Shown: positions 551-8,448, counted from the first letter of the stretch. The stretch: DNA of 8,865 nucleotides from a virus (IMGVR_UViG_2740892214_000003); one strand, 5' to 3'. Notes: generated by a model from the letters alone, not told the origin. Program-made: numbers and translations.

Positions 551-1546
551 TCAGGCCAGCACGCCTATTGCCAGCGCACGATCGATAAAACGAAATATCA
601 GCTCCAGCTGGGAGCCATACTTCTCTTCAAATGCCACGGTATCCGCATGCAGCTCGTCGTGATGCTTTCTGCACAAAGGCAACACAAAAAGGTCATGCGC
701 TTTTGTAGCCATTCCACCCTGACCGTGACCTATCAGGTGGTGGGGATCATCAGCAGGCTTTCCACAACATGCACACGGCTGTGTCTTAACCCAGCGCGTG
801 TACTTTTCATTAACCCAGCGGCGACGTTTTGGGCGTAACATAAAAGACTCCGGCGACTCCGGATCCACTTTCAGCGCCAGCACCTTTTTCGCTTTATCCT
901 GGATGATGCTGGTGGCAGGAACCGAAGGCACAAGGTCACTTTCCCGGGTGACAGACGGCACAACAGGCTTCGGTAATCTCAGTGCCTTACGGGCTGCACT
1001 TTCCGGTAAGGCATCCGCCAGGTCATTACGAATCAGCCACCAGCACAGTTCCGGCATTGTCACAACGTGACTGTCATCAAAACCGAGATCCCGACGCACA
1101 ACAGACAACACCCAGCGGGTACAGTTATCCGTTGCCATTGATTCCAGTCGTTCCGTGAACTGATCGCGCAGCTGGTTATCGCAGTGCCAGCACAGACGGA
1201 TTGCGCCCGGCGCGTGTCGCATTGTTGTCATGTTCTCGCTGTGCCAGTCGGAATGAGGCCACTGGCAGCCTTTTTCACGAAGTAACCAGCTTTCAAGACA
1301 TTCCACGCCACCAGCACGACGGATCACTGCCTCATTGCGGAACACGGCCCGAACGGCAGGATCATCCGCCAGCGGTTGTGATGCCGCCGGAACGGCACCA
1401 CTGGCGAAAGATGAATAACGTTCCGGCTCAGGCTCCAGCAGGACACGCCCCTGCATAAACAGGGGCATCAGCTCTGAACCTGGCCTGAACAATACGATCC
1501 CCATACGCGGGGCAATTTCAGGGGTCAGTAGCGCTCTCACGGTCAC
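551..1546 (-). CDS. DUF968/YdfU-like prophage protein with a C-terminal Cys/His (HNH-like, probable zinc-binding) region
   Basis: 331-codon open frame. C-terminal segment ...QPCACCGKPADDPHHLIGHGQGG...LPLCRKHHDELH... has paired Cys and His typical of the DUF968/NinG-like prophage proteins found just upstream of Q. The start is uncertain: the codon at 1544-1546 is GTG, a second GTG lies at 1538-1540 and the first ATG is at 1502-1504. The upstream gene stops at 1548-1550. Confidence 0.65.
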   Translation of the reverse strand: MTVRALLTPEIAPRMGIVLFRPGSELMPLFMQGRVLLEPEPERYSSFASGAVPAASQPLADDPAVRAVFRNEAVIRRAGGVECLESWLLREKGCQWPHSDWHSENMTTMRHAPGAIRLCWHCDNQLRDQFTERLESMATDNCTRWVLSVVRRDLGFDDSHVVTMPELCWWLIRNDLADALPESAARKALRLPKPVVPSVTRESDLVPSVPATSIIQDKAKKVLALKVDPESPESFMLRPKRRRWVNEKYTRWVKTQPCACCGKPADDPHHLIGHGQGGMATKAHDLFVLPLCRKHHDELHADTVAFEEKYGSQLELIFRFIDRALAIGVLA

Positions 1547-1547
1547 C

Positions 1548-2378
1548 TCAATGAACGGTATCGAGCAGCTTTAACAGCTCAGGGAACCGGGATTCGAAGA
1601 AATGCGGCTGCGTCTCGCGCGGATTTGCGGGACTGGTGATGTTCTTGCCGAACATGCAGCCTTTCGCTGTCAGCGACCAGAATTTTTTGATGTTGTTAAT
1701 CGCAGTGCGGCTGTATCGTTCACGTTGTTCAACGATCCCCAGCTTCGCCATCTGGTGATATGCCTGATTAGCTGTCAGGCGGATACCATACTGCTTCAGC
1801 AGTGCACTCAGTGACAGCGTGGGGCGGCTTGAGCCATCAGGCGCGTCAGCAGGAGCATCAATGGCATAGCGCGGTGCCAGATTCGGTAAGCCAACAGCCT
1901 CCTGGAGTTTCTGACAGGCACCAAGCACTGAAGAGTTAGACAGGTTTAATTCCCGGCGCATAAAGTCCAGCAGAATCACACCAGCCTGCATCTTGTCAGC
2001 AGCCTGTCCGGATAATTTTTCCGGTGCGCTGGTTACCATGTCGAAAGTACGGATCACCTTCAGATGGAATGACGGGCTNNNNNNNNNNNNNNNNNNNNNN
2101 NNNNNNNNNNNNNNNNNNNNNNNNNNNNNNNNNNNNNNNNNNNNNNNNNNNNNNNNNNNNNNNNNNNNNNNNNNNNNNNNNNNNNNNNNNNNNNNNNNNN
2201 NNNNNNNNNNNNNNNNNNNNNNNNNNNNNNNNNNNNNNNNNNNNNNNNNNNNNNNNNNNNNNNNNNNNNNNNNNNNNNNNNNNNNNGCTACTGCTGCGCG
2301 ATGCAGATCGTTCAGGCTGTAACGCCCATAAGCATCACGACGAACTTCAATACCATCAATGACCATCAGATTATTCAT
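1548..2378 (-). CDS. KilA-N domain protein (prophage antirepressor-like); central part masked by N
   Basis: N-terminus MNNLMVIDGIEVRRDAYGRYSLNDLHRAA is the characteristic start of KilA-N domain proteins. ATG at 2376-2378 with an AGGAG about 9 nt upstream on the minus strand. The reading frame stays continuous across the N run (2079-2286). The C-terminal 170 aa is an unrecognised domain. Confidence 0.7.
   Translation of the reverse strand: MNNLMVIDGIEVRRDAYGRYSLNDLHRAAVXXXXXXXXXXXXXXXXXXXXXXXXXXXXXXXXXXXXXXXXXXXXXXXXXXXXXXXXXXXXXXXXXXXXXXSPSFHLKVIRTFDMVTSAPEKLSGQAADKMQAGVILLDFMRRELNLSNSSVLGACQKLQEAVGLPNLAPRYAIDAPADAPDGSSRPTLSLSALLKQYGIRLTANQAYHQMAKLGIVEQRERYSRTAINNIKKFWSLTAKGCMFGKNITSPANPRETQPHFFESRFPELLKLLDTVH
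2079..2286. other. Run of 208 N (masked or unresolved sequence) inside the KilA-N CDS
   Basis: Literal n characters in the sequence; the flanking codons remain in frame. Confidence 1.
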
Positions 2379-2397
2379 ACTTCGTTTCTCCTCTTAA

Positions 2398-2787
2398 TCA
2401 GGCGGCTGCACCCGCCGTTTTCTCGTACTTACTGATAGTGATCTCGACCTTCCCTTTCGGGATAACCGGTCCCCACTCCACCAGCATTCTTTTCACCTGT
2501 CTGTCGTCTTCCCACACACCCGCGTGGGTCAGGGCGTCAAACAGCGCCTTGTTATAGTTGTCCAGATCACGGATCCGGTTATCCGGCGGAAACAACACGA
2601 TCTCCACTGAAGCAGGTGCCGACGTTGGTTTCGGCAGACGACGTAACTGCTCAACTATTGCTGCGCACGCCGCGCTCTGAAATTTTCGCCCCGCCTCGCT
2701 TATCAGGCTCTTACCAGCAAATGCCCCTTTGTTGGGGTGTCGCCAGTACGTGTTCACACTGGGCGGGAAAGGAAGGATCAACTTCAT
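2398..2787 (-). CDS. rusA: Crossover junction endodeoxyribonuclease RusA (Holliday junction resolvase)
   Basis: Protein MKLILPFPPSVNTYWRH...RDLDNYNKALFDALTHAGVWEDDRQV... aligns by eye with E. coli RusA (ITLPWPPSNNRYYRH...[26 protein letters not shown]). ATG at 2785-2787 overlaps the upstream stop (ATGA). Confidence 0.85.
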   Translation of the reverse strand: MKLILPFPPSVNTYWRHPNKGAFAGKSLISEAGRKFQSAACAAIVEQLRRLPKPTSAPASVEIVLFPPDNRIRDLDNYNKALFDALTHAGVWEDDRQVKRMLVEWGPVIPKGKVEITISKYEKTAGAAA

Positions 2788-3110
2788 ACTTTCAGGCCCC
2801 TCTCATGTAACCAGTGGGCTGCACGCAACCTGGCGCTCTCCTCACCGGCAAGCAGTGCGCGGATGATACCGACCGCTTCGCTGTCGTCGTCCTTCACTGC
2901 GGTATGAAGCGTGATCCCCCGGGCCACGCCACGCTTTATCGTGATGACGCCTTTTTTCTCCAGTGCGCGAAGATGCTCCACCGCTGCATTCACTGAACGG
3001 TATCCCAGCATGGTTGCCACCTCCTGATTGGTTGGCGGAAAGCCACGCTCTTGCTGGTAAGAAATCAGCATATCCAGCACCTGCTGCTGGCATTGAGTTA
3101 ACGTCGTCAT
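2784..3110 (-). CDS. LexA N-terminal DNA-binding-domain-like protein lacking the S24 peptidase domain
   Basis: N-terminal 70 aa (MTTLTQCQQQVLDMLISYQQERGFPPTNQEVATMLGYRSVNAAVEHLRALEKKGVITIKRGVARGITL) parallels the LexA winged-helix domain ([58 protein letters not shown]...GASRGIRL). The protein ends after 108 aa with no Ala-Gly cleavage site or Ser/Lys peptidase core. ATGA overlaps on both sides. Confidence 0.7.
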   Translation of the reverse strand: MTTLTQCQQQVLDMLISYQQERGFPPTNQEVATMLGYRSVNAAVEHLRALEKKGVITIKRGVARGITLHTAVKDDDSEAVGIIRALLAGEESARLRAAHWLHERGLKV

Positions 3111-3760
3111 GCCGCCATCTCCCTGACAAGTTTTTCTGCCTGCTGGCGAACCTGCGCCAGAAACGCCTCACCACATGCCTCAAGTTCATCGCGCCCGATG
3201 TAGCTGATTGCCGGTCCCTTCCAGGTCTTGTCGAAAACAGCAATAGCACCAGCGAAGAAAGCGCCTGTCGGCACCTGCTTCTCGTCCTTCGGGATAAACC
3301 AGGCTGGCAGTTCAAAACCAATACGCCCGCGAATAAAAGCAATATGGTCTGCATCTTCCGGCCACCACACTTCGCTGGTGGCAGCTTTGATCAGGAAAAC
3401 ATAGCGCCCGCCTTTATCACGCATAGCACTGGCATGTTTCATGATGTAACGCATGCCGGTGATGTATTGCCCCTCATGCTGACTGGCGCGGCTGTACGGG
3501 GGATTACCAAAGGCAGCACCTTTAAGCTCCGCAAGACGTTCTGACCAGTCATGCGCCAGCGCGTTGTCTTCCGCAGTGTAATAAGCGGCACATTTGGCGT
3601 TATCACCATCAGTGAACAGATCCAGAACAAACGGGCCAAACAGGGTGTTAATTCCCCAGAAAATGTTGTCCGGCGTGCGCCACTGATCGCCCACTTCCTT
3701 CAGTTCATGGGCTGGTTTGTTCCGCAGTTCCACCAGCGCCTGGCAATATTTATTACTCAT
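3107..3760 (-). CDS. Phage DNA N6-adenine methyltransferase (Dam-like, orphan)
   Basis: Motifs WRTP, FGNPPYS (the NPPY catalytic motif) and the FIRGRIGF region are typical of the phage Dam family. The ATG at 3758-3760 overlaps the upstream stop (TAATG); the track start at 3793 is a GTG and would overlap the upstream gene by 33 nt, so it is less likely. Confidence 0.85.
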   Translation of the reverse strand: MSNKYCQALVELRNKPAHELKEVGDQWRTPDNIFWGINTLFGPFVLDLFTDGDNAKCAAYYTAEDNALAHDWSERLAELKGAAFGNPPYSRASQHEGQYITGMRYIMKHASAMRDKGGRYVFLIKAATSEVWWPEDADHIAFIRGRIGFELPAWFIPKDEKQVPTGAFFAGAIAVFDKTWKGPAISYIGRDELEACGEAFLAQVRQQAEKLVREMAA

Positions 3761-4248
3761 TAAGCCCCCACGTAATTCCCTGATAGATACCACTCTTCAC
3801 CTGATGCAGCGCGCTTGCTGCTTTTCCGTAAGCACCGCTCACGACGCGCCAGAAAATTGTTTCGTTCTGGCTGGGAGTGGCTTTCACGGAATGCCGCCAT
3901 CCACACGGTTGCAGCACGACGGTATAAGCCCCTTGACTCCAGTTCTTCAGCCTGGCGGGTCAGGCACAAAATCACCCGGGGATCGTTAGTGCCGACATAG
4001 AAATTGCGCACAGGTCTGGTTTCACGAACTGGTTGTGGTTCCGGCTCCTGCGCTCTCTCAGTCAGGCGTGGGAAATGTCTGCGTGTATCTCCTTCACAAC
4101 GGTGAGCCACACGCCCACTCTGACGTAACTTGCTTGCAGACTGCAGAACGCGCTGCCGTGAGTAACCTGCAAAAGCATCCGCAATGTCTCCGGAAGTACA
4201 CCCCGGATGGGCTTCAATGAATTTCTGAACTTCATTCAAAAGACTCAT
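3760..4248 (-). CDS. Putative regulatory protein with an N-terminal wHTH-like region and a PerC/ANR-like C-terminal motif
   Basis: Open frame coupled to both neighbours. The first ATG is at 4246-4248 (MSLLNEVQKF...); the track start at 4254 is a GTG. The C-terminal segment LTRQAEELESRGLYRRAATVWMAAF resembles, from memory, the conserved helix of PerC/ANR-family activators. The family assignment is tentative. Confidence 0.55.
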   Translation of the reverse strand: MSLLNEVQKFIEAHPGCTSGDIADAFAGYSRQRVLQSASKLRQSGRVAHRCEGDTRRHFPRLTERAQEPEPQPVRETRPVRNFYVGTNDPRVILCLTRQAEELESRGLYRRAATVWMAAFRESHSQPERNNFLARRERCLRKSSKRAASGEEWYLSGNYVGA

Positions 4249-4250
4249 GA

Positions 4251-5243
4251 TCACCCCCTGAATCCTACCGGGATCTGGCTGTAGTCCACGTTGTCGTAAC
4301 TGGCTTTGAAGTACGGGTCTTCACGTTTTTCTGTGTGCGTGCTGACGGACGGCGATAAGCGCAGGGAAAGCTCATCCCATTTTTCCCGCAACTTCGACGG
4401 GCTGAGCACGTTACGGCACCAGAACGGATCACGGCTGACGCGGCTGTACATCTCGCAGATTTGTTTGTGAGTACGACCATCCTGCACACACATCAGGCGA
4501 ATTTCGTTTGCCCATGCTGTCCAGTTCGGTTCTTTGGGACGAACCACCTCGCCGTCACATTCGGCGGCCTGCTCGTACAGGGCGATGATTTTTTTCCAGA
4601 GCCACTGTGCGCAGGTCAAATCATCCTGCGTTCCCCACTGGCGCTTTTTAGGGCTGAATACAACCGCATCAGGATGGCGAGTTAAAAACTCCTGTTCAGC
4701 CGTTTGCGTGTCCGGTTGCGAAGCGTCCGGACGAGAAGAGGTTTTATTCTCTGTAGTAATCTCTGTTGTATTCTCTGTAAGATCATTGGGCCATTTTGAC
4801 CCGATGACAGCGTGTCGTTTTGAACCAATGGATCGTGTCATTTTGCGCCCATCCATCAGGTCACTTTGACCCGATGGAGAAGTGCATTTTGACCTGATGG
4901 ATTCGTTCACTTTGACCTCTTCTAAAAGCTCACTTTCATAGTTGATCGTGTAGAAGTTGGTCATGTCACGCTTCGATTTATTGAGTTGCTCGCGACGCAA
5001 AACCCCAAGTGATTTCAGGCTTGCAAATGTGCGTTTCAGAGTGGACTCTGACCAGAACGGAAACTGCTCCAGCCACTGTTCTGTCGTGTTATAAACCCAG
5101 CGAATTCCGCCATGCTCAGTGCCTGAATTCGTTTCATTCAGCCAGTAATGAAGCTGCTGCAACACAATTGCCTCATTCAGACCAATACGGCATGCAAGAT
5201 CACGATTTATCACAATGGGCTGGGATGTCATTAACAGACTCAT
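4251..5243 (-). CDS. O-like replication initiator (replisome organiser) with the origin iterons inside its coding sequence
   Basis: 330-aa ORF; the N-terminal region (INRDLACRIGLNEAIVLQQLHYWLNE...) resembles phage replication-initiator wHTH domains. Six iterons of about 17 bp lie in the middle of the gene, as in lambda O. ATG at 5241-5243 overlaps the upstream stop (ATGA). Confidence 0.75.
   Translation of the reverse strand: MSLLMTSQPIVINRDLACRIGLNEAIVLQQLHYWLNETNSGTEHGGIRWVYNTTEQWLEQFPFWSESTLKRTFASLKSLGVLRREQLNKSKRDMTNFYTINYESELLEEVKVNESIRSKCTSPSGQSDLMDGRKMTRSIGSKRHAVIGSKWPNDLTENTTEITTENKTSSRPDASQPDTQTAEQEFLTRHPDAVVFSPKKRQWGTQDDLTCAQWLWKKIIALYEQAAECDGEVVRPKEPNWTAWANEIRLMCVQDGRTHKQICEMYSRVSRDPFWCRNVLSPSKLREKWDELSLRLSPSVSTHTEKREDPYFKASYDNVDYSQIPVGFRG
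4746..4782. repeat. Three tandem 11-12 bp repeats (TCTCTGTNGTA) flanking the iterons
   Basis: attctctgtagtaa / tctctgttgta / ttctctgtaaga read directly from the sequence; they encode the TEN/TEI/TEN repeat in the initiator linker. Confidence 0.6.
4793..4922. repeat. Replication-origin iterons: six direct repeats with consensus CAYTTTGACCYGATGGA at 22-24 bp spacing
   Basis: Repeats start at about 4793, 4815, 4839, 4862, 4885 and 4908 (cattttgacccgatga / cgttttgaaccaatgga / cattttgcgcccatcca / cactttgacccgatgga / cattttgacctgatgga / cactttgacctc). The spacing of roughly two helical turns is typical of initiator-binding iterons. Confidence 0.7.
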
Positions 5244-5464
5244 GCCGCACCTCCGAGATGCTTCATGTTTTTTCCGGAGCGAAAGGCTATAAGCGGCATA
5301 CTGACGCGGTAATTACGACCCAGCGGTTCACAAATCACCTTCTGACATTCACGGTCCACCAGGCTAACACGTAGAACATGCCCTGCAGGCGTGGTGTACC
5401 ACTGACCGGGGCGAGGACAACGGAAAGTCTGATTGGTAAATCGTTTGAAAATATTCCGGATCAT
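5240..5464 (-). CDS. Hypothetical small basic protein (74 aa)
   Basis: ATG at 5462-5464 overlaps the Rha-ORF stop and its own stop overlaps the O-like ATG (ATGA both sides), which argues that it is translated. No family recognised. Confidence 0.5.
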   Translation of the reverse strand: MIRNIFKRFTNQTFRCPRPGQWYTTPAGHVLRVSLVDRECQKVICEPLGRNYRVSMPLIAFRSGKNMKHLGGAA

Positions 5465-6624
5465 TTGCGCCCCCTTACCTCTGAAGAGTTCAGCGACGAA
5501 TGAATAAGACGGGCAAGAAATGCCGCATCGTTAATTCGGTCATACAGACTTACAGCCAGAGGTGATTCAGCTTTTTCCAGCATGGGATAAAGCTGCTGCA
5601 ACCAGACCTGATGAATTGATGAAATGTAGGAATAGAGAACACTGGCGTTATGTGCAACGTCGCTCGGTACAGCGGGCTTTGAAAGCTGTTTCTCCATCTG
5701 GTTAAAGGCATTGATGTATGCCTCTTTGCACTGGGCAGCACGTTTACCCGTGAAACCCATAGCAAGAAACGCAAAGCCATCGCGGGTTATTTGATAGCAA
5801 GGTAGTTTGCGAGTACCGCCGTTGGGCTGGCGTACCAAAATTGATGTCTCCGCAAAATTGCGGGCACAAAACTCTGGAGAACAATCCAAAATGCGAATCT
5901 TTTTCAGAACATCGTCATGACGTTTAGAGAAGAAGTCAGCAACAGCCAAAGAAGATGTAACAGCCTGACCATCAACGATGGCAATTTCAGGTTGAGAGAG
6001 GGTTGGGAGAGTAGTCATAGTGACAGCCCCGGTAGTCAGTTTTTTAGAAAACTCACCACATGGGACGCCAATCACAGAGGTGGTGAGACGTACAGGGTTG
6101 GCGTTACCGGAGACTACCGAACCCGGCCCGACCGAAGTCGGCCCTGTACGCCCCACCATAATTTGGGCGTAGCAATGCTCATGACACGAAAAAACCGCAT
6201 GAGCGCGGTTATGCTCAGTAATCAATTTCAGGACGCCAATCCCGGCACCCGCTTTATAAGGTGCCTGAACAGTGTAACGTCCCGGAATGGCAGAATCAAT
6301 GTGCTGGTGGTCCTTCACACTCAACAAAATCACGCCTGAATTTCCACAAAGGACTAAAGCACTCATGCGGGTAGTCTTTGCGAAGATAGATAACGCGCTG
6401 TGTTTCTGGCTCCCAACGAATAACATGGACATAAAGCCCTCTTCCATCACGAAACCAGCGGTTAAGTTCCTGCACAACTCGCCCCCCACAGTCAGGTAAA
6501 GTTCTCTGTGGTTACTTACAGCCAGGTGATTTGGTAATCTGCATTCATGCCGTAACAACAGGTGTTCAGCGACACTGACCACCAGCTGTTGCGACAAACG
6601 GTTATTTGCCGTTAAACTGTTCAT
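5461..6624 (-). CDS. Rha-family phage regulatory protein carrying an unrecognised N-terminal extension of about 200 aa
   Basis: Residues about 215-311 (IAIVDGQAVTSSLAVADFFSKRHDDVLKKIRIL...RKLPCYQITRDGFAFLAMGFTGKRAAQCKEAYINAFNQME) match the pRha domain pattern. The same frame stays open for a further 606 nt upstream, to an ATG at 6622-6624 that overlaps the CII-like stop (ATGA). An alternative internal start is the ATG at 6016-6018 (MTTLPTL...). Confidence 0.6.
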   Translation of the reverse strand: MNSLTANNRLSQQLVVSVAEHLLLRHECRLPNHLAVSNHRELYLTVGGELCRNLTAGFVMEEGFMSMLFVGSQKHSALSIFAKTTRMSALVLCGNSGVILLSVKDHQHIDSAIPGRYTVQAPYKAGAGIGVLKLITEHNRAHAVFSCHEHCYAQIMVGRTGPTSVGPGSVVSGNANPVRLTTSVIGVPCGEFSKKLTTGAVTMTTLPTLSQPEIAIVDGQAVTSSLAVADFFSKRHDDVLKKIRILDCSPEFCARNFAETSILVRQPNGGTRKLPCYQITRDGFAFLAMGFTGKRAAQCKEAYINAFNQMEKQLSKPAVPSDVAHNASVLYSYISSIHQVWLQQLYPMLEKAESPLAVSLYDRINDAAFLARLIHSSLNSSEVRGRK

Positions 6625-7199
6625 GCGTTAGTTTCTCCACAGACACAAAACGCCACGACGCCCGGAGCTGCACACTCGCGGGCGTTACTCTTTTCCGGCG
6701 CACAAAAAACACGAAATAACAGTGTTAAATGCTCCTGCCACTTCGCCATTACTTGGTAGCTGTTCTCTTCGATTTGCTCACGCTCAGCCTGGTCAATAAC
6801 TCCATCAGCAGTTGCCTTGCGTAAGTACTGGGAATGCTTGCCAATCCATTCTATTGACTCCATCAGCCGCTGATTAATGTCACCATTGTCAATGTCATCA
6901 ATGACCACCAGCGGCACAAACACCCCATTACTACGACGGGCTATTGCATCTGTTATATGCCTGGTACCACTGGCATCCTGTAAAACCATGGCCCACTCAA
7001 GTGGAAAAATTTGATCCCCACCGCTACGCAGTCTGTTATGCAATTGATCTTTTGCTGGGGTGATATCATCAGATTTATACAAACCAAGAATTTCTGCTGC
7101 TTCCTCATAGCCATGAGGTAAATCAGCAATCGTTCTTCGTATTGCTGCCACCAGCCATGCTGGTTGTTTATCAACTTTCCATTCAGGTTCTTTACCCAC
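6621..7199 (-). CDS. CII-like regulatory protein (possibly CP76/YdaT family)
   Basis: 192-codon ORF immediately downstream of cro, the position of cII. Apparent GTG start at 7197-7199 with a GAGGA 7 nt upstream on the minus strand. The family assignment rests on position and a loose resemblance recalled from memory. Confidence 0.5.
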   Translation of the reverse strand: MGKEPEWKVDKQPAWLVAAIRRTIADLPHGYEEAAEILGLYKSDDITPAKDQLHNRLRSGGDQIFPLEWAMVLQDASGTRHITDAIARRSNGVFVPLVVIDDIDNGDINQRLMESIEWIGKHSQYLRKATADGVIDQAEREQIEENSYQVMAKWQEHLTLLFRVFCAPEKSNARECAAPGVVAFCVCGETNA

Positions 7200-7226: not shown

Positions 7227-7424
7227 TTATGCCGCAGCACTGTTAGTCTTTTGATATAAAGACACGTCAACTTTCAGTTTTCCGTTAGTAATTTTTTCTA
7301 ACTGGTACGCTCGGCCTTCAGGAATAATCTCAGGCCACTCTGAAACAGACGGATGCTTAATACCTAGGGCTTCGGCGGTTTTACAAACTCCGCCGAAATA
7401 ATTAATCACGTCGGATTTCCGCAT
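7227..7424 (-). CDS. cro: Cro-type repressor (P22 Cro-like)
   Basis: MRKSDVINYFGGVCKTAEALGIKHPSVSEWPEIIPEGRAYQLEKITNGKLK parallels P22 Cro (MYKKDVIDHFGTQRAVAKALGISDAAVSQWKEVIPEKDAYRLEIVTAGALK). ATG at 7422-7424 with GGGAGA upstream; divergent from the repressor gene. Confidence 0.85.
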   Translation of the reverse strand: MRKSDVINYFGGVCKTAEALGIKHPSVSEWPEIIPEGRAYQLEKITNGKLKVDVSLYQKTNSAAA

Positions 7425-7456
7425 TTCTGTCTCCCGTTAAATTACGTTAAGCAGAA

Positions 7457-7474
7457 ATGTAGGATATCCAACAT
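7457..7474. promoter_or_regulatory. Operator (18-bp palindrome ATGTAGGATATCCAACAT) in the cro-proximal position
   Basis: Near-perfect inverted repeat; it is the exact reverse complement of the site at 8271-8288. Confidence 0.75.
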
Positions 7475-7485
7475 GCCAATGTCAA
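7457..7485 (-). promoter_or_regulatory. PR-like promoter for cro: TTGACA, 17-bp spacer, CTACAT (read on the minus strand)
   Basis: Minus-strand TTGACA (plus 7480-7485) and CTACAT (plus 7457-7462) with a 17-bp spacer. The same 35-bp module recurs at 8260-8289. Confidence 0.6.
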
Positions 7486-7496
7486 GAATCCTACAT
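7479..7496. promoter_or_regulatory. Degenerate operator (ATGTCAAGAATCCTACAT) with one good half-site
   Basis: The right half ATCCTACAT is a perfect half-site and the left half is poor. It lies inside the 9-bp inverted repeat TGCCAATGT...ACATTGGCA (7475-7500). Confidence 0.45.
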
Positions 7497-7503
7497 TGGC
7501 ATG

Positions 7504-7521
7504 TGGTAGGATTGCCTACAT
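7504..7521. promoter_or_regulatory. Degenerate operator (TGGTAGGATTGCCTACAT) overlapping the repressor start codon
   Basis: Matches 7 of 9 and 8 of 9 positions of the operator half-sites; sits in the position of an OR3-like site. Confidence 0.45.
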
Positions 7522-8173
7522 GATGAACATGAGTGATCGTATTCGCCAAAGGCGAAAAGAACTGAACCTGACACAACAAGCACTGGCTGATTTGACTGGT
7601 GTGAACCGTGTCACGGTTACTGGATGGGAAAAGGACGACTACCAACCAAATGGAGCCAACCTTCAAGCCCTAGCCAACGCACTTAAATGCGATCCTCTGT
7701 GGCTTGTTAGCGGAAAAGGCTCGCCTGAACCAAAGATAAATCTAAAACCTGAAATATTCGCAGTTAAAAAAGTCCCCCTCATCTCGTGGGTTCAGGCGGG
7801 TTCATGGACAATGACGGAGCCTGGTGTCAGGAAAGAAGATGCTGAAGAGTGGGTTTATACTACCGCCCTTGTATCAGAAATGGCATTTGCACTACGGGTC
7901 CGTGGTGATTCAATGACCAATCCCCTCGGCTCACCATCGATACCAGAAGGTTCTATCGTTATCGTAGAGCCAGATATTATTGATACAGAGTGTATTAACG
8001 GAAAAATCGTTGTTGCCCATATCAATGGTGGGCAAGAAGCGACACTCAAAAAATTTGTTGAGGACTGGCCGAACAGGTATCTCGTCCCACTAAATCCTAA
8101 CTATAAAACTATTGAATGCGGTGAGAACTGCAGAATAGTTGGTCTTGTCAAACAAGTAATAATGGATTTTTGA
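7520..8173 (+). CDS. cI: CI-type phage repressor: N-terminal HTH plus C-terminal S24 (LexA-like) autopeptidase
   Basis: The HTH region (LTQQALADLTGVNRVTVTGWEKD), an Ala-Gly site (VQAGSW), the catalytic Ser in GDSM and Lys in TLKKF are all present. The track start at 7496 is a TTG; the first ATG at 7520 sits under a degenerate operator and has a weak AGGA 8 nt upstream. Confidence 0.85.
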   Translation: MMNMSDRIRQRRKELNLTQQALADLTGVNRVTVTGWEKDDYQPNGANLQALANALKCDPLWLVSGKGSPEPKINLKPEIFAVKKVPLISWVQAGSWTMTEPGVRKEDAEEWVYTTALVSEMAFALRVRGDSMTNPLGSPSIPEGSIVIVEPDIIDTECINGKIVVAHINGGQEATLKKFVEDWPNRYLVPLNPNYKTIECGENCRIVGLVKQVIMDF

Positions 8174-8235: not shown

Positions 8236-8253
8236 ATGTAGGATAACCAACAT
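8236..8253. promoter_or_regulatory. Operator (ATGTAGGATAACCAACAT), OL-like distal site
   Basis: 18-bp near-palindrome matching the operator consensus ATGTWGGATATCCWACAT. Confidence 0.7.
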
Positions 8254-8259
8254 AAACTC

Positions 8260-8289
8260 TTGACACTTACATGTTGGATATCCTACATT
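8260..8289 (+). promoter_or_regulatory. PL-like promoter (TTGACA, 17-bp spacer, CTACAT/TACATT) for the operon to the right of the repressor
   Basis: Consensus -35 at 8260-8265 and a -10-like hexamer at 8283-8289, with an operator embedded; near-identical to the cro promoter module. Confidence 0.6.
8271..8288. promoter_or_regulatory. Operator (ATGTTGGATATCCTACAT) overlapping the spacer and -10 of the rightward promoter
   Basis: Perfect 18-bp palindrome of the same family. Confidence 0.75.
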
Positions 8290-8448
8290 TGTTTTTAGAG
8301 TTGTGGTGAATGCGCAGGCTGATGCGCGAAAGACATTGCAGCTATTGCGGAAAAGAGCTGTTCGGCGGGGCAATTAAACGCCCGTGAGAGTCTGAAATAA
8401 CCGCAAGCCGGAGATCAGCACCGGTCACCACAACAGCCACTGCTTTGG

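Follow-up and report, generated by a model that had tools for sequence, protein, structure and literature searches.

The gene at positions 1548-2378 is read here, with about even confidence, as encoding a bipartite DNA-binding regulator that a lambda-like E. coli prophage would make in the delayed-early phase, and as a member of the Bro network of phage proteins. According to this reading, its KilA-N domain would recognize DNA in a sequence-specific manner, the central part of the domain being an allelic cassette that is exchanged. Self-association would be provided by a helical hairpin, and a flexible linker carrying an invariant motif would lead to a winged-helix-like C-terminal domain making a second conserved contact, either with DNA or with a conserved partner. 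The gene would be co-transcribed with cro, the replication genes, rusA, DUF968 and Q once the repressor is lost, and the protein would therefore act in lytic growth and not in the quiescent lysogen.

The window, i.e. the whole stretch of 8,865 nucleotides that was analysed, represents the part of a lambdoid prophage that comprises its immunity, early-right and nin regions. The open reading frame and the 208-nt N run inside it were found as first described, as judged by the ORF list and the sequence. The features of the gene and its neighbours are collected in Table 1.

Table 1. Positions in the window of the KilA-N gene, its parts and the genes around it
Feature	Position	Strand	Remarks
KilA-N gene	1548-2378	minus	276 codons through the N run; 269 aa in relatives with identical flanks
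Shine-Dalgarno GAGGAG	2388-2393	minus	strong; 9 nt 5' of the ATG (2378-2376); read from sequence
N-terminal 30 codons + 2 nt (MNNLMVIDGIEVRRDAYGRYSLNDLHRAAV)	2287-2378	minus	strands 1-2 and start of helix 1; translation, AF2
N run, 208 nt	2079-2286	.	replaces the KilA-N core, covers the hypervariable replacement cassette
C-terminal KilA-N helix (SPSFHLKVIRTFDMVT)	2031-2078	minus	orthologue residues 94-109; Pfam to 109, AF2 helix 95-110
Helical hairpin, LNLSxSSxLG	1893-2015	minus	residues 115-155; AF2 helices 115-137 and 141-155, pLDDT ~90
Linker, LPxYAIDAP(x5)GSSxPT	1821-1892	minus	residues 156-179; pLDDT 60-70, no secondary structure assigned
C-terminal alpha/beta domain	1551-1820	minus	residues 180-269; strand, two helices, four strands, helix
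Q antiterminator	162-548	minus	
DUF968/HNHc	551-1546	minus	
RusA	2398-2787	minus	
LexA DNA-binding-domain-only protein	2784-3110	minus	PF01726
Dam-type methyltransferase	3107-3793	minus	
PerC-like gene	3760-4254	minus	
O-like gene with iterons	4251-5243	minus	330 aa, no Pfam match
Ash+Rha gene	5461-6624	minus	387-aa ORF
CII/CP76-like gene	6621-7199	minus	
cro-like gene	7227-7424	minus	
cI-like repressor	7496-8173	plus	flanked by 18-bp palindromic operators

Five complete E. coli genomes, that of strain 219 among them, match the 1193 nt of readable flanks (window positions 1400-2800) with 100% identity. The gene is uninterrupted there (810 nt, 269 aa, WP_001061444.1) and annotated as 'KilA-N domain-containing protein'. 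No complete E. coli genome matched the whole window at 99% or more. A 1401-nt query comprising rusA, the KilA-N gene and DUF968 found matches in 2410 of the 5426 complete E. coli genomes, with at least 80% coverage in 2093, corresponding to a gene frequency of about 39-44% (~40%). The gene was also found in phages mEp460, SfV, SfII, ST64B and cdtI, and in several Stx2 phages. Among lambda-like prophages of E. coli it is a very common early gene, previously annotated and uncharacterised. A few singleton gene calls (P0001-P0006, P0012, P0014) fuse KilA-N with RusA (405 aa), LexA_DNA_bind or other domains, and one database protein of 339 aa has part of its C-terminal module internally duplicated; these are probably assembly or gene-calling artefacts, or else rare rearrangements.

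The earlier note, made from the window alone, had seen a clear KilA-N start. This holds by way of the orthologues: WP_001061444.1 matches the Pfam KilA-N family (PF04383) over residues 7-109 with E=2.4e-22 and 79.2 bits (cut-off 23.8), and tblastn showed residues 4-105 of the domain to be 40% identical to P1 kilA (X15639.1, E=2e-10). Taken by themselves, the 30 readable N-terminal residues do not show it. Because the masked translation of the window matched no Pfam family (0 families), the assignment is made through orthologues only. Most of the KilA-N core is indeed hidden by the N run, which removes residues 31 to ~93 of a domain of ~110 residues (numbering of the 269-aa orthologue).

We compared the length of the masked stretch among relatives. 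In 46 loci with the same anchors, it measured 187 nt in 45 and 220 nt in one, and the implied gap in 60 sampled E. coli genomes was ~175, 187 or 220 nt. Since all these lengths equal 1 modulo 3, the reading frame is kept; a frame broken by the unmasked sequence, which the earlier note had named as an outcome that would speak against it, was seen in no relative. Recovery of the masked sequence was partial: intact, in-frame alleles are present in relatives, whereas the exact masked sequence was not retrieved, a 208-nt allele being found neither among the 46 anchored loci nor in the 60 sampled genomes. The N run may be a scaffold gap of estimated size at a repeat or mosaic boundary, a conjecture that would explain the figure of 208. 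To judge from the aligned relatives, the masked core could confidently be filled with the frame intact.

The masked stretch covers the most variable part of the gene. Among 80 close-relative loci, four cassette types (A, A2, B and C) were distinguished, between which nucleotides ~90-230 of the gene are 13-56% identical, compared with 93-100% in the rest of the gene. The cassette is thus allelic and sharply bounded, and lies inside the KilA-N domain. On the AF2 model it corresponds to helices 41-60 and the next hairpin, which in this model would probably form the DNA-recognition part of KilA-N. Further cassette types occur in the protein database, some of them with a tandem repeat of 11-12 aa. 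Alleles with one or two extra 11-12-aa units (TQNLGVGSFNET, ~36 nt) encode proteins of 280 and 292 aa, the extra units being placed in the loop that follows the second pair of KilA-N helices (P0017, P0028; L049, L055). Over the 80 loci, no association was seen between cassette type and the type of Q, the type of repressor or any adjacent gene, and a target can therefore not be named from it. To look for an RNA concealed in the masked stretch, the unmasked type-A region of orthologues was compared with Rfam, without a match at E<=1. Residues 72-108 of the orthologue, in the conserved KilA-N helix region only, match weakly (E=1.6e-5) the PADLOC candidate defence model PDC-S22, which probably reflects a common KilA-N-like segment rather than a defence function.

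The C-terminal part, which the earlier note could not assign to a domain, proved to be unnamed in the curated libraries: neither Pfam nor NCBIfam gave a match beyond residue 109 of the orthologue, and the only families covering it were two PHROGs, phrog_129, labelled 'transcriptional regulator', which spans the full length, and phrog_6486, which spans residues 192-269. The profile search that had been proposed for it was carried out exhaustively with the window-encoded C-terminal 176 aa as query and a threshold of E<=0.001. It revealed a conserved module of ~150 aa (hereafter the C-module) in 795 representatives of 50%-identity clusters, with the motifs LNLSxSSxLG, LPxYAIDAP(x5)GSSxPT, YGKN and PRETQPHWY. 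The C-module is present in SfV, SfII, SfIV, ST64B, cdtI, mEp460 and Stx2 phages, and also in APSE, in Pseudomonas F10 and JBD68 and in Klebsiella, Yersinia, Vibrio, Paenibacillus and Ruminococcus phages, i.e. from phages of Proteobacteria to those of Firmicutes. A literature search found no functional study of the family.

The AF2 model of the whole protein, based on a 100-sequence alignment, has a pLDDT of 90.4 and shows KilA-N at residues 1-110 followed by the hairpin, the linker and the alpha/beta domain (Table 1); modelled separately, the C-terminal domain has a pLDDT of 89.5. In the hairpin, L137 and S142 are kept in at least 90% of the aligned sequences. The hairpin may be a dimerisation element, and self-association through it is probable. 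The linker carries the most conserved linear motif of the family, in which P162 and Y164 do not vary at all and D167, S176, S177 and T180 hardly do. This motif is probably unstructured, which would suit a contact with another protein no less than it would DNA binding.

Within the alpha/beta domain, the motifs are YGKN and PRETQPH(W/F)(Y/F), and the beta hairpins of the C-module carry invariant R, K, N, Q and H residues. The family profile matched the PadR-family chain 1xma weakly (E=0.36), and sub-threshold matches to Pfam PadR were obtained for 12 of 53 members with the C-terminal domain. We read this domain as winged-helix-like, namely as a winged helix of divergent type to which a further conserved hairpin is added; the named DNA-binding domains of this fold with which it was compared are those of the PadR and MerR/excisionase types. 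The structure search, also proposed in advance, was fruitful only to this extent: the AF2 model is winged-helix-like with PadR as a faint match, and no solved structure was matched by sequence, for the C-module family or for BstA. We also considered kinship with ANT/KilAC and with the Roi and P43 proteins of APSE. The full target protein had no match to ANT/KilAC (PF03374) at E<=1, the ANT HMM matched only two of the 53 members with the C-terminal domain (E>=0.066), and hhalign against APSE Roi and P43 returned probabilities of 0.2-1.6%, which led us to reject this kinship.

The Bro network of shuffled domains was reportedly described by Iyer, Koonin and Aravind in 2002. Two properties of the protein connect it with this network: its N-terminus is a KilA-N domain of the network set, and its C-module recombines with several such domains. 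Among 100 diverse full-length proteins, the N-terminal partners of the C-module were Rha (31), KilA-N (25), Bro-N (16), AntA (5), ORF6N (5) and P22_AR_N (1), and this range of partners is the signature of the domain-shuffling network. Other members, such as Roi of HK022 and APSE, Rha, AntA/AntB, P22 Ant and PLE CapR, have the same plan of an interchangeable N-terminal DNA-binding domain joined to a swappable C-terminal module. They likewise occupy early or nin regions, often beside other genes of the network. The C-module itself differs from the network domains curated in Pfam, namely ANT, P22_AR_C, ORF11CD3 and Phage_ASH. Domain swapping in the network, and segments of its proteins that are not curated, have been described (PMC10111431).

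The position of the gene bears on when the protein would be made. As the earlier note had said, the repressor is not its neighbour; the gene belongs to the early-right operon, a densely packed one in which everything from the cro-like gene through Q is encoded on the same strand, with ends that abut or overlap. A spacer of 19 nt, which includes the Shine-Dalgarno sequence, separates the rusA stop codon (2398-2400) from the KilA-N gene; DUF968 starts at most 7 nt from the KilA-N stop codon. The only promoter candidate for independent expression is a 9/12 consensus match overlapping the start codon, and promoter-like sites are no more numerous over the window than in shuffled sequence. With the genes so closely packed and only 19 nt in front of this one, independent expression in a lysogen is unlikely. 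No candidate binding sites or repeats were found near the gene, the repeats elsewhere in the window being the origin iterons and the immunity operators. The region upstream of the ATG contains just an inverted repeat, GGCGG..CCGCC. A terminator-like hairpin, GGCGG-CTGCAC-CCGCC followed by GTTTTCT, is present at 2401-2416 of the plus strand, antisense to the operon, in the last rusA codons and a short way upstream of the KilA-N start; no plus-strand transcript ending at this hairpin is evident.

The gene order rusA-KilA-N-DUF968-Q is retained in Mangrovibacter at 71% protein identity. More distant homologues, from Paenibacillus, Klebsiella, APSE and Pseudomonas phages, are likewise encoded in early operons and in the same direction as cro and the replication genes; they often have other antirepressor, Roi or Rha genes as neighbours, but not RusA or DUF968. 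Expression in the delayed-early phase, as proposed here, would be in keeping with such positions.

Several other elements of the window were noted. Matches to C4 antisense RNA (82.3 bits) and isrK (59.3 bits), both at the Rfam gathering level, lie at 6076-6163 (-) and 6188-6264 (-), in the 5' part of the Ash+Rha ORF. Since a relative annotates only 321 aa, the 5' third of this ORF probably consists of RNA genes and is not coding. Together, C4, isrK and Ash+Rha look like an immunity-RNA module of the P1/P4 type controlling an antirepressor-like gene. Four direct repeats of ~23 nt (CATTGGGCCATTTTGACCCGATG-like) at 4784-4899, inside the gene at 4251-5243, are probably the origin iterons of an O-like replication initiator gene. 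An 18-bp palindrome, ATGTAGGATATCCAACAT, is present in three copies flanking the cI-like gene, at 7457-7474, 8236-8253 and 8271-8288, and 40-nt inverted arms at 7448-7487 and 8258-8297 contain copies of it. These sites are the probable OR and OL operators, each overlapping a promoter-like TTGACA-18-TACATT site. The LexA-type protein encoded at 2784-3110 has 108 aa, matches PF01726 with E=2.6e-19 and has no S24 peptidase domain; judged from its sequence, it would be a non-cleavable LexA-like DNA binder of the nin region. Finally, the DUF968 (YdfU-type) protein matches the HNHc_6 putative nuclease model with 27.6 bits (cut-off 26.6).

An antirepressor role was the first alternative to be weighed. 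The protein would then inactivate a CI-type repressor through its C-module or the linker motif; the repressor could be the prophage's own, giving a lytic lock-in, or that of a co-resident prophage, giving cross-induction. The link to antirepressor-type proteins raised by the earlier note stands at the level of architecture, as the C-module is common to proteins with Rha, Bro-N, AntA, ORF6N and P22_AR_N domains. The AntA, P22_AR_N, Rha and Bro-N families include proven antirepressors. In the same direction, a region of Salmonella phage Emek with the annotation 'ant: antirepressor' shares 44% identity with the KilA-N domain, the invariant and probably disordered linker motif suggests a protein contact, and the freely reassorting hypervariable cassette could mirror changing targets. 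However, the gene lies deep in a pR-type operon and would be made only once the resident repressor is gone. The same prophage moreover has a module of the classical antirepressor type, with C4 antisense RNA and isrK upstream of Ash+Rha; the C-module is without similarity to the ANT/KilAC of APSE Roi or P43; and a module kept from Proteobacteria to Firmicutes phages would be an odd fit for repressors, which are highly diverse. We consider an antirepressor role unlikely.

P1 KilA, the founding KilA-N protein, suggests another possibility. It shares with the target a homologous N-terminal KilA-N domain, at the 40% identity given above, and both are two-domain phage proteins whose genes lie in early or lytic operons. 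P1 KilA kills E. coli when expressed. A comparable host-directed 'kil' function, by which the C-module would disturb transcription, replication or division of the host in lytic growth, could account for the conservation of this module and its linear motif across phages of Proteobacteria and Firmicutes, as expected of a universal host target. The C-terminal halves are nevertheless unrelated: that of P1 KilA is KilAC/ANT, whereas the target, which has no ANT match, carries a hairpin, a linker and a winged-helix-like module. Such a function is, in our estimate, decidedly improbable.

We regard with still stronger doubt the proposal that the protein is a DNA-targeting partner guiding or regulating either RusA, a Holliday-junction resolvase, or the DUF968/HNH-like nuclease. 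The conserved order rusA-KilA-N-DUF968 in E. coli phages and Mangrovibacter, with spacers of 19 nt and at most 7 nt, would agree with it, as would the HNHc_6 motif in the DUF968 protein. Yet distant proteins with the C-module are not encoded beside RusA or DUF968, and the linkage may simply reflect the common ancestry of one nin-region block.

The earlier note had mentioned BstA-type abortive infection as a possible function, and on this point each of the tests made went the other way. BTP1 BstA, used as positive control, matched the PADLOC BstA model PDLC02356 at 1.9e-124, while the target gave no match to this model at E<=1, and BLASTP of the target against BstA returned E=0.41. In the precomputed Pfam assignments, PF26567 is present on all 120 listed BstA homologues, whereas the target family has PF04383 only. 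Profile comparison by hhalign of the target with BstA gave a probability of 5.6-12% (9-12% for the alignment of the C-module with BstA) and E=0.0024-0.0068, a value that applies to a single comparison. The score of 23.9 compares with a mean of 12.8 for column-shuffled profiles (sd 2.5, maximum 21.3) and with 21.8 for the reversed template. What is similar is a short motif, FW..YG..R.TQPHWY..F in the C-module and W..YG..R.KHPH.YPdWF in BstA. At the level of profiles, the resemblance is not significant.

The two proteins are alike in gross layout, with a KilA-N(-like) N-terminus and a second domain of ~150 aa encoded by a prophage (PMC8585504), and differ in other respects. BstA genes typically adjoin the prophage repressor (PMC8585504), being placed downstream of it, whereas the gene studied here is in the early operon, between rusA and DUF968-Q and ~5 kb from the cI-like gene. 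The KilA-N domain of BstA is detectable by HHpred only, while that of the target is a strong Pfam match. In BstA, self-immunity depends on aba elements, which are homologue-specific and defined by function (PMC8585504); no aba-like element was identified at the target gene. Membership of the BstA family was ruled out on these grounds, i.e. by the HMM search, by BLASTP, by the hhalign comparison with its shuffled and reversed controls, and by where the gene lies.

A bolder version would place the C-module in very remote kinship with the C-terminal domain of BstA, with which it has the order W...YG...R..(Q/H)PH.Y...F in common; in the lytic cycle the protein would inhibit DNA replication of rival phages, and the cassette would set which DNA is spared or targeted, as in cognate BstA-aba pairs. 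We hold this to be very improbable; were it true, BstA-like warfare between phages would be a standard function of the nin region, in ~40% of E. coli genomes and throughout the Bro network. Exclusion of the BstA kind in the strict sense, i.e. binding of the protein to foreign phage DNA in the course of replication, which it would stop, while a cognate element in the prophage would confer self-immunity, is the most improbable of all, since beside the shared layout and the motif stand the failed BstA comparisons, with a reversed-template score close to the real one, a place in the early lytic operon away from the repressor with a 19-nt spacer that leaves no room for a promoter of its own, and a frequency among complete E. 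coli genomes at which it behaves like a core nin-region gene.

The reading as a delayed-early, bipartite regulator is the one that we retain. The analysis established the domain architecture, the shuffling of the C-module, the place of the gene in the operon and the lack of kinship with BstA, whereas DNA binding by either domain, dimerisation, the time of expression and a regulatory output are inferred.

As it stands, little changes: this is a routine gene, already annotated as 'KilA-N domain-containing protein', and the finding is an ordinary one apart from the uncurated domain family. The new points are modest, namely the definition of the C-module family and the cassette internal to KilA-N. 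The C-module is large and well conserved, plugs into at least six N-terminal DNA-binding domains and is uncurated, so that it merits a family definition. The cassette, being bounded and located in the probable DNA-recognition part, offers a natural opportunity for specificity swaps. If the C-module binds a conserved host factor, or is kin to BstA, a very common phage gene would be explained.
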